Below are positions 5,190-5,711 of a stretch of DNA of 56,980 bases, piece after piece; positions within the stretch are counted from its first letter, which is position 1, and each line of letters begins with the position of its first letter. The notes beneath the pieces were generated by a model. The model saw nothing but the letters and a program-made list of their open reading frames with translations, was not told the DNA's origin and ran no database searches. The position numbers and the translations under genes were made by a program. This DNA is from a virus: IMG/VR virus record IMGVR_UViG_3300025632_000018, positions 1-56,980 of that record; one strand, 5' to 3'.

Positions 5190-5218
5190 TTGACTAAATA
5201 CAGTATAGGGTCTATAAT
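5190..5218 (+). promoter_or_regulatory. Sigma70-like promoter driving the riboswitch-like leader
   Basis: TTGACT-17 nt-TATAAT; predicted TSS near 5225, at the 5' end of the aptamer-like sequence. Confidence 0.75.
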
Positions 5219-5224
5219 GGACCT

Positions 5225-5452
5225 ATCGTTCATCAGAGGAGACTCTGACGCAAGTAAGTCGCGGAACGGAGCCGTTCATCCCATGATTGAATTTCTTTTA
5301 TATTCATCACTCACATGCCAACAAGCCGATAGTATTATGCTGAAGATGAAAGCAAACGAGAATCTCTCTGATGCTTTTAAGGTTGAGTTGGTAGAGACCG
5401 TAAAGGAATCTGTACCTGAGTGTATATGGGACGCAAACGACTAAAGGAACGG
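5225..5452 (+). ncRNA. Tandem glutamine-riboswitch-like RNA (glnA/Downstream-peptide type)
   Basis: Two units of CGTTCAT...GACGCAA...GGAACG. Unit 1 has hairpin TCAGAG-gaga-CTCTGA. Lies upstream of a DUF4278-like gene, the usual context of this motif class. Confidence 0.65.
5283..5444 (+). CDS. 53-aa protein nested in the riboswitch-like element
   Basis: MIEFLLYSSLTCQQADSIMLKM...PECIWDAND; not separately called by the ORF track. Confidence 0.6.
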   Translation: MIEFLLYSSLTCQQADSIMLKMKANENLSDAFKVELVETVKESVPECIWDAND

Positions 5453-5485
5453 ACCTAAAAATCCAACTACTTTAGGAGTAAACAA

Positions 5486-5653
5486 ATGAACACACTTCAA
5501 ATGATTAAAAAGCAGATCAACAAAGTATCTGCACTGCACGACGCACAGATCACTCACACCTCATATCGTGGTGTTGAGTATGATACTCGTTGTGTAAAAT
5601 CAAACGAAACACACGGTACATTCTGTTATCGTGGTCGTGTCTACAATAAGTGA
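5486..5653 (+). CDS. DUF4278-like small protein (55 aa)
   Basis: SD AGGAG; MNTLQMIKKQ...SYRGVEY...CYRGRVYNK with two YRG repeats; below the ORF-track cutoff. Confidence 0.7.
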   Translation: MNTLQMIKKQINKVSALHDAQITHTSYRGVEYDTRCVKSNETHGTFCYRGRVYNK

Positions 5654-5674: not shown

Positions 5675-5711
5675 AGGGGGGTTGCAAGACCCTCTTTTTT
5701 TATGCTATAAT
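5675..5711 (+). terminator. Terminator overlapping the next promoter
   Basis: AGGGGGGTT-GCAA-GACCCTCT plus T-run; TTGCAA and TGCTATAAT overlap it. Confidence 0.6.

Follow-up and report, generated by a model that had tools for sequence, protein, structure and literature searches.

The locus at positions 5225-5452 of the viral record IMGVR_UViG_3300025632_000018 raises the question of how two sets of glutamine-riboswitch motifs and a complete 53-codon open reading frame (ORF) can share one leader. The whole stretch of 56,980 nucleotides (nt; positions 1 to 56,980 of the record) was analysed and is referred to as the window; it belongs to a T4-like cyanomyovirus, the nearest record being Synechococcus phage S-SKS1 (~82% identity across the 5225 region). 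An original prediction, made from the letters of the window, had placed two glutamine aptamers in tandem, with the ORF (gp197) inside a stem of the second one. Comparison with relatives indicates a nested fold, with the two cores one inside the other and not side by side. The leader is probably a double glutamine aptamer of interlocked three-way junctions, in which glutamine would switch on the downstream gene gp198, coupled to the translation of gp197.

Identification of the element

All motifs of the original prediction were confirmed by direct reading of the window: CGTTC (5227-31), TCAGAG/CTCTGA (5233-38/5243-48), CGCAAGTA (5249-56), AGTCG (5257-61), GAACG (5264-68), a second CGTTC (5273-77), TCCCAT (5279-84), ATGGGA (5426-31), CGCAA(A) (5432-37), CGACT (5438-42), AAAG (5443-46) and a second GAACG (5447-51). 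Two copies, and no more, of the half-motif GACGCAA-N(7-11)-GGAACGG are present in the 57-kb window (5247-69 and 5430-52), with an expectation of 0.00 from 100 shuffles, and CGTTCATC occurs four times, compared with 1.19 expected. The whole layout was found again in hundreds of cyanophage records.

At the gathering threshold, Rfam reported two tRNAs in the window and no glutamine riboswitch. At E values of up to 10 the only part of the element matched by the glutamine-I model (RF01739) was 5225-5272; the second half is invisible to Rfam because of the 140-nt insert, and the glutamine-II model (RF01704) had no match in the window even at this setting. ORF-less relatives score above the threshold (43.6 and 41.0 bits), each being read as one aptamer with a 38-39-nt insert in helix P3. 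The proposed relationship to glutamine riboswitches was borne out by the sub-threshold RF01739 match and by the core motifs conserved in relatives.

Secondary structure

Through the gp197 protein 231 loci were gathered, and 148 distinct ORF-bearing elements were aligned (A2). When IMG/VR was scanned by pattern for the inner core combined with a short helix P2b, 120 loci were retrieved; in at least 101 of these the double element is complete and P2b is a simple hairpin. Such ORF-less relatives are common in cyanophages, and 65 distinct ones were aligned (A3); the combined comparison included 266 distinct elements. Loci are cited by their L numbers. MAFFT mis-registers P2a and also P2b of L141-143, and three cells counted as unpaired at 5283:5427 are alignment artefacts.

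Two independent covariations decide between the nested and the tandem pairing. The inner strands GAACG/CGTTC are jointly replaced by CAACG/CGTTG in 24 of the 148 ORF-bearing elements, the outer CGTTC and GAACG being constant. Under the nested fold the junction pair of the inner helix P1' is then GC in 124 elements, CG in 24 and unpaired in none; tandem pairing leaves 24 unpaired cells in each of its two P1 helices. The first junction, CGCAAGUA, is changed to CGGAAGUA (CGC to CGG) in 14 of the 65 ORF-less elements, and exactly those have C and not G after the last GAACG. The outer long-range pair is thereby CG in 51 and GC in 14 under the nested fold, with none unpaired, whereas the tandem assignment yields 14 mismatches at both long-range pairs (G.G and C.C). 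Applied to A3, RNAalifold recovers four helices of the nested fold, namely outer P1, P2a, the inner hairpin and P2b.

Because of these two covariations the tandem P1 pairing of the original prediction was rejected. In that arrangement 5227-31/5264-68 would close unit 1 and 5273-77/5447-51 unit 2, the two acting as independent sensors. It is true that all four P1 strands are interchangeable in about 85-90% of the relatives as well as in the window, that the total energies are nearly equal, that the minimum-energy fold at transcript length 5270 is exactly unit 1, and that glutamine doublets are treated in the literature as independent tandem units (PMC9481103). Apart from the mismatches just described, however, unit 1 would lack any P3, and the nested pairing is chosen by RNAalifold and Rfam alike. 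Side-by-side sensors are accordingly regarded as very unlikely; the arrangement may occur as a co-transcriptional intermediate.

Several observations weigh against the nested, two-core reading. In the sequence of the window alone the P1 strands can be exchanged at almost no cost, the nearest-neighbour energies being -63.5 kcal/mol for the nested fold (tertiary and ligand energy excluded) and -63.0 for the tandem one; the window cannot separate the pairings, and the assignment therefore rests on relatives. Outer P1 is invariant and hence has no covariation of its own; its partner was assigned because the neighbouring long-range pair covaries and the tandem model is excluded. On a tree of the ORF interiors the state of the inner pair changes at least 13 times, and both sides changed together in four of four well-supported independent contrasts. 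The corresponding sign test gives p = 0.125 for the inner pair, which has no counter-examples, and about 0.06 for the anti-Shine-Dalgarno pair of the expression platform, the counts being small, and recombination among phages blurs the tree. The P3 helix of class-B relatives contains one or two fixed C.A mismatches. The inner core is without loop E and has shorter junctions (CGCAAA and CG). Finally, the RF01739 match of 23.6 bits (E = 0.007) lies below the gathering score of 35.

Anatomy of the element

The outer three-way junction is, by its motifs, a canonical glutamine-I (glnA) core (Table 1). The inner junction, read from 5273 (CGUUC, A, P2b, CGCAAA, P3 from the other side, CG, GAACG, G5269), is on the nested pairing a circular permutation of this core, the ends of P1' being joined by the loop GAG(C). 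The loop begins with G in every case. In all 148 ORF-bearing elements the two long-range pairs, C5251:G5452 of the outer core and C5434:G5269 of the inner one, are C:G. The roles of the nucleotides in J2/3 are as in the solved structures (PMC6698751), and G5263 is the putative counterpart of the conserved G before GAACG (PMC6698751).

The mutual complementarity of AGTCG and CGACT, already noticed in the original prediction, corresponds to a P3 helix common to both cores and is accompanied by many compensatory variants across the 266 elements. Strand pairs include AGUCG/CGACU, AGUCA/UGACU, GGUCG/CGACU and GGACGG/CCGCCC, further AGCCGACU with either AGCCGACU or AGUUGACU, AGCCGACA/UGCCGACU and AGCCGACG/CGCCGACU, and also ..GACA/UGCC.. 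and ..GACG/CGCC... The closing pair in A2 is GC in 129 elements, GU in 15 and AU in 3, and matched 3-nt insertions are present on both strands in relatives. Pair 3 (5259:5440) is U-A in the class of the window; the AGCCGACU and GGACGG classes have a fixed C.A or A.C there, and this mismatch points to a conserved non-Watson-Crick feature of the shared helix.

Where relatives have no ORF, P2b forms a short hairpin with heavy covariation (CG39/UA26; GC25/CG22/UA17). In ORF-bearing relatives its 3' strand is a Trp-Asp codon pair, and its 5' strand varies mostly from C to U only, so that G.U pairs are kept. Compensatory changes across the ORF are UCCUC/GAGGA (L141-143) and UCUCA/UGAGA (L150); in the former loci a Trp-to-Glu change is compensated ~150 nt upstream, in the strand lying in the 5' untranslated region (UTR). 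Covariation thus upholds the predicted TCCCAT/ATGGGA stem. In L141-L143, moreover, the two bases flanking P2a, A behind CGUUC and C ahead of GCAAGUA, are jointly changed to G and U; this switch from A.C to G.U hints at a wobble pair extending P2a.

Table 1. Coordinates of the features of the two-gene unit in the window
Feature	Position	Strand	Evidence or remark
Sigma-70-like promoter TTGACT, 17-nt spacer, TATAAT	5190..5218	+	11/12 matches; same placement in relatives
Outer P1, 5' strand CGUUC, pairs with 5447-5451	5227..5231	+	99.5-100% paired, invariant; RNAalifold on ORF-less relatives
P2a hairpin UCAGAG-GAGA-CUCUGA, outer core	5233..5248	+	Rich covariation, pair types UA/AU/CG/GC
Outer junction J2/3, CGCAAGUA	5249..5256	+	Rfam alignment; AAGUA is the loop-E strand; C5251:G5452 long-range pair
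P3, 5' strand AGUCG, pairs with 5438-5442, common to both cores	5257..5261	+	At least 8 complementary strand pairs across 266 elements
Inner junction J3/1, CG	5262..5263	+	G5263 invariant in A2
Inner P1' hairpin, GAACG 5264-68/CGUUC 5273-77, loop GAGC	5264..5277	+	GC124/CG24; RNAalifold
P2b, 5' strand UCCCAU, pairs with 5426-5431 across the ORF	5279..5284	+	Holds A and U of the gp197 start codon
gp197, 53 codons and TAA, PHROG 504	5283..5444	+	In the P2b loop; amino-acid conservation
P2b, 3' strand AUGGGA	5426..5431	+	Covers codons 48-50
Inner junction J2/3, CGCAAA	5432..5437	+	Inside codons 50-52; C5434 pairs with G5269
P3, 3' strand CGACU	5438..5442	+	Last base is stop codon base 1
Outer junction J3/1, AAAG, loop-E strand	5443..5446	+	With 5441-42 also the OFF-state anti-Shine-Dalgarno strand
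Outer P1, 3' strand GAACG, and G5452	5447..5452	+	G5452 is the long-range partner of C5251
Small hairpin GGA/UCC, A-rich loop	5451..5464	+	G5451, G5452 and A5453 pair with U5462, C5463 and C5464
CUUUAG (5470-75) and Shine-Dalgarno GGAG (5475-78) of gp198	5470..5478	+	CUUUAG pairs with 5441-46 in the OFF state
gp198, 55-amino-acid DUF4278-like protein, two YRG motifs, presumed regulated gene	5486..5653	+	Pfam PF14105, PHROG 545
Intrinsic-terminator-like hairpin and T run, end of the two-gene unit	5675..5703	+	Hairpin itself 5675-5696

Genes within the stems

Homologues of gp197, which tblastn found in 313 phage records, can be aligned from end to end; they show many differences that conserve the amino acid, and insertions and deletions come only in multiples of three. 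The protein belongs to PHROG 504, a family of unknown function (E = 1.4e-27); no Pfam family matched it. Both aptamer halves flank the gene in every IMG/VR locus with both ends on the contig. As judged from amino-acid conservation the ORF is a real gene. Its enclosure by the stem TCCCA(T)/(A)TGGGA was correctly foreseen, as were the position of the ATG in the 5' strand and of the stop codon at CGACT/AAAG (UAA 5442-44, formed by the last base of the one and the first two of the other). The start codon of L226 and L227, however, lies outside the stem, 13 nt past it, so that its burial is not universal.

Synonymous sites are frozen in codons 50-53 (GAC 0.99; GCA 1.00, with one of four codons used; AAC 1.00; GAC 0.98), whereas conserved interior residues use several codons. 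Furthermore, L128 and L150 keep the motif of the CGCAAA region in a different reading frame, and ORF-less elements keep it with no reading frame. These patterns indicate that the constraint at the ends of gp197 acts on the RNA. The conservation of W49, D50, A51 and D53 at 98-99% among 114 distinct 53-codon ORFs would also fit a protein constraint on the N-terminus and the WDAND tail, with no part for RNA structure; yet the restriction of the frozen sites to four codons, the survival of the motif through the frame shifts and the compensation of the Trp-to-Glu change in the 5' UTR strand all speak against it, and the same sequence in ORF-less homologues refutes it, leaving this explanation a negligible probability.

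In many relatives a gene of about 60-69 codons is enclosed by P2a as well (L345, L381, L232, L234, L240, L252 and others). The 46 distinct proteins belong to a second family, in which the motifs HW(E/D)M(S/T)C and YLIDY occur; CGUUCAUCC(A) precedes the start codon, and many of the ORFs read the junction GGA CGC AAG UAA as ...GRK-stop. Genes in both P2a and P2b are present in some loci (L381, L097 and L171-L196). P2a of the window (5233-48) is a plain hairpin with no counterpart of the P2a gene.

Putative ligand sites

The ligand site of both solved glutamine classes consists of C1:G59, the G22 triple and the long-range pair, the last of which caps P1 and is G23:C60 in glutamine-I and C19:G41 in glutamine-II (PMC6698751). 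The pocket-equivalent bases of both phage cores are invariant in A2, which was collected via the protein and not via these bases, and the inner-core motifs CGUU(C/G)A, CGCA and GGAACGG are unchanged in 148 distinct sequences with ORF interiors only ~50% identical. Since every pocket nucleotide of the solved glutamine-I and glutamine-II structures is kept, glutamine binding by each core is probable.

A riboswitch with a single aptamer, in which the outer core alone binds glutamine and the inner junction is a P3 decoration that carries the gene, is considered unlikely. It would agree with the way Rfam reads the ORF-less forms and with the missing loop-E motif and shortened junctions of the inner core, and the 3-4-nt loop that closes P1' beside the long-range pair may be sterically tight. 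Against this stands the fact that the unchanged inner-core motifs are exactly the pocket bases of both solved classes. The glutamine-II class binds its ligand without loop E too, and the P1' loop always opens with the G needed for the long-range pair.

Expression platform and proposed mechanism

Both cores share one expression platform, where side-by-side tandem (pseudo-cooperative) riboswitches have one for each aptamer. The strand CU(A/G)AAG (5441-46, the P3 end and the loop-E strand) is complementary to CUU(U/C)AG (5470-75), which adjoins the Shine-Dalgarno GGAG of gp198. This anti-Shine-Dalgarno helix is 98.8% paired; its pair 5443:5473 is AU in 75, GC in 36 and GU in 34, and A never occurs with C. 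Of 102 distinct tails, 98 are predicted to form the adjacent GGA/UCC hairpin, which varies at its third pair (G-C, A-U, G.U and C-G) and survives a large insert. Both helices are in the minimum free energy (MFE) fold of 5225-5500 (-69.5 kcal/mol), and both are incompatible with the outer core. Glutamine riboswitches have been shown experimentally to be ON switches for DUF4278/IF17 genes (PMC6212724), and the layout of the platform suggests an ON switch here as well, with glutamine turning on the DUF4278/IF17-like gp198. The match of gp198 to Pfam PF14105 (residues 25-54) reaches 23.1 bits (E = 9.4e-5), the cut-off being 25.3.

An alternative pairing of CCUAAA (5454-59) with UUUAGG (5471-76) could still mask the Shine-Dalgarno sequence in the folded state, a point against the proposed mechanism; as a part of the platform this hairpin is a possible candidate that lacks covariation support. 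Rejected was the pairing of GUUCAU (5228-33, outer P1 5' strand) with AUGAAC (5486-91, the start of gp198), which is part of the MFE fold and is unconserved where gp198 starts with AUGGCA. An extra conserved domain of about 30-40 nt is found in L004, L088, L168, L177, L187 and L188 inside the GGG/CCC hairpin of the platform, between the outer GGAACGG and the Shine-Dalgarno sequence of gp198; it is composed of ACGGAUCC, a covarying hairpin and AGAAGGUU.

Four elements of the mechanism proposed here are established by comparison among relatives: the nested pairing of the cores, the helices of the OFF state, the status of gp197 as a coding gene and the constraint on RNA at either end of it. The transcript start, glutamine binding by either core, communication between the sites via the shared P3, the ON direction and the interplay with translation are inferred. 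In the absence of ligand, 5441-46 would pair with 5470-75 beside the Shine-Dalgarno sequence, G5451 and G5452 would be held in the small hairpin, and gp198 would be off. Glutamine would lock outer P1 and the long-range pair and withdraw these bases from the OFF structure, turning gp198 on. P2b would form only after the ORF has been transcribed. The folded sensor would bury the start codon of gp197, and a ribosome reaching the stop codon at 5442-44 would have to open P2b, P3, outer P1 and the anti-Shine-Dalgarno helix. Ribosomes on gp197 must unzip the sensor because P2b, P3 and outer P1 lie in or just after the gp197 frame, which makes a coupling of ribosome traffic to aptamer folding plausible; together with the hidden start codon it follows that gp197 and gp198 should be regulated reciprocally.

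Translational coupling might also be the main drive of gp198, with the ribosome at UAA 5442-44 melting the anti-Shine-Dalgarno helix and glutamine in a minor role. The gp197 stop codon lies inside the anti-Shine-Dalgarno strand 5441-46, 41 nt before the gp198 start, and a terminating ribosome would, from established footprint sizes, cover 5441-5455. In ORF-less relatives, where there is no upstream ORF for coupling, the platform and the gene behind it are nevertheless the same, so that the platform must work by RNA switching alone; a mainly ribosome-driven gp198 is therefore quite improbable.

A more far-reaching version of the glutamine-switched leader is offered tentatively, as somewhat less than an even chance: a two-site, one-platform glutamine sensor in which the permuted core shares P3 and the P2 loops serve as docking sites for small genes, making up a reciprocal gene-inside-riboswitch operon. 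The two sites could talk through P3, the helix that moves on ligand binding; a re-orientation of P3 when ligand binds has been described (PMC5393176). The ligand-locked fold would silence the nested genes, docked at P2b here and at P2a or both in relatives, and would switch on the IF17-like gene.

Comparison with known RNAs

The element resembles glutamine-I riboswitches (RF01739; the Synechocystis gifB/IF17 leader, PMC6212724; 5DDP, PMC6698751 and PMC5393176) in P1 CGUUC/GAACG, the P2 hairpin, P3 and the long-range pair. Its outer core additionally shares J2/3 CG(C/G)AAGUA, the loop-E strand (A/G)AAG and the position upstream of a DUF4278 gene, and the CGUUG/CAACG variant of inner P1' is the P1 of the crystallised RNA. 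Where glutamine-I is defined by CGGAAGUA in J2/3 and GAAG in J3/1, the outer core has CGCAAGUA and AAAG and the inner core CGCAAA and CG. Unlike in glutamine-I, P3 is closed about 180 nt away and holds a second, permuted core in place of a terminal loop, a stem loop holds a whole gene, the element measures 225 nt compared with about 60, and the long-range pair matches the C:G of glutamine-II, where glutamine-I has G:C.

Glutamine-II (Downstream-peptide, RF01704), which controls DUF4278 peptides of marine picocyanobacteria, has the CGCA ... GGAACGG signature and the C:G long-range pair in common with both phage cores, and the lack of loop E in common with the inner one; its pocket is nearly identical (PMC6698751). 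Its P1 equivalent is a pseudoknot of the 5' CGUUC with the loop GGAACG, with P2 on the 3' side, whereas both phage cores are three-way junctions; covariation supports the nested helices and not the glutamine-II pseudoknot. With the tandem glycine riboswitch, in which two aptamers serve one expression platform, and glutamine doublets (PMC9481103) the leader would share two homologous ligand sites and possibly a sharper response. Unlike in those RNAs, the cores are not consecutive: one is inserted into the other and shares its helix. The platform of the leader is single.

Group I and II introns harbour protein genes in loops of structured RNAs whose helices close around the gene, and in leader-peptide attenuators the translation of a small ORF decides the fold of the RNA. 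In contrast to introns, the host RNA here is a metabolite sensor and not a ribozyme, and the nested gene is neither a homing nor a maturase gene; in contrast to attenuators, no stalling codons are evident in the element.

Genomic context and distribution

Promoter, structured leader with the 53-codon ORF, 55-codon ORF and terminator-like hairpin make up a compact early unit, with genes for ThyX and PhoH a short way downstream. Phage records annotate both ORFs, as gp197 (5283-5444) and gp198 (5486-5653). The promoter foreseen next to the element is present, and transcription would start at ~5225, two bases ahead of outer P1. Its -10 box lies inside a DNA inverted repeat (window 5209-5223) with arms that covary among phages, e.g., GGTCTA..TAGACC, ATGGTA..TACCAT, GTCATG..CATGAC and TGTGTTA..TAACACA. 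Since the repeat lies ahead of the point where transcription presumably begins, it is more suggestive of an operator or of a structure in the DNA than of an RNA hairpin.

Glutamine riboswitches have been noted in T4-like cyanophages (PMC9964418), and 157 glutamine doublets were counted as pseudo-cooperative tandems (PMC9481103). No description of nesting, permutation or genes inside stems was found in the literature, Ames & Breaker 2011 and Ren 2015 not being covered, and the supplements of Weinberg 2010 contain nothing on nesting. R1, a covariance model built from the ORF-less relatives, had no match under strict filters in 120 further genomes (the family of one Synechococcus-labelled genome); in the window it finds the 5' half and a false 3' half at ~5340-5360 and is unusable for the interrupted form. 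A pattern scan of genome contigs for the nested signature was abandoned as evidence, being swamped by chance matches in unrelated phyla (an estimated ~200 expected by chance). The two cyanobacterium-labelled matches of the scan (L381 and L407) are on phage-like contigs, one of them of 194 kb. On one viral contig a PhotoRC-II RNA (RF01717, 57.1 bits; L241:1021-1116) is located about 7 kb from an ORF-less double riboswitch, whose natural form measures 85 nt (L241:8336-8420).

Significance

Riboswitch aptamers are viewed as compact, contiguous and non-coding, and multi-aptamer riboswitches as consecutive units. The element described here departs from this picture in that one core is housed within a helix belonging to the other, a riboswitch core is circularly permuted in nature, and complete genes are tolerated in aptamer stems. 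Standard annotation misses the interrupted forms, which fall below the Rfam threshold, and takes the uninterrupted ones for a single aptamer. Should glutamine be bound at both sites, the leader would represent a new architecture for cooperative or digital sensing, and also a simple system for the competition between translation and ligand sensing on one RNA. A phage homologue of the family of glutamine-synthetase inactivating factors would be placed under direct control of nitrogen status. The finding bears on how cyanophages manage the nitrogen metabolism of their hosts in the ocean, and the reciprocal operon, if it proves true, would tune host nitrogen assimilation during infection.

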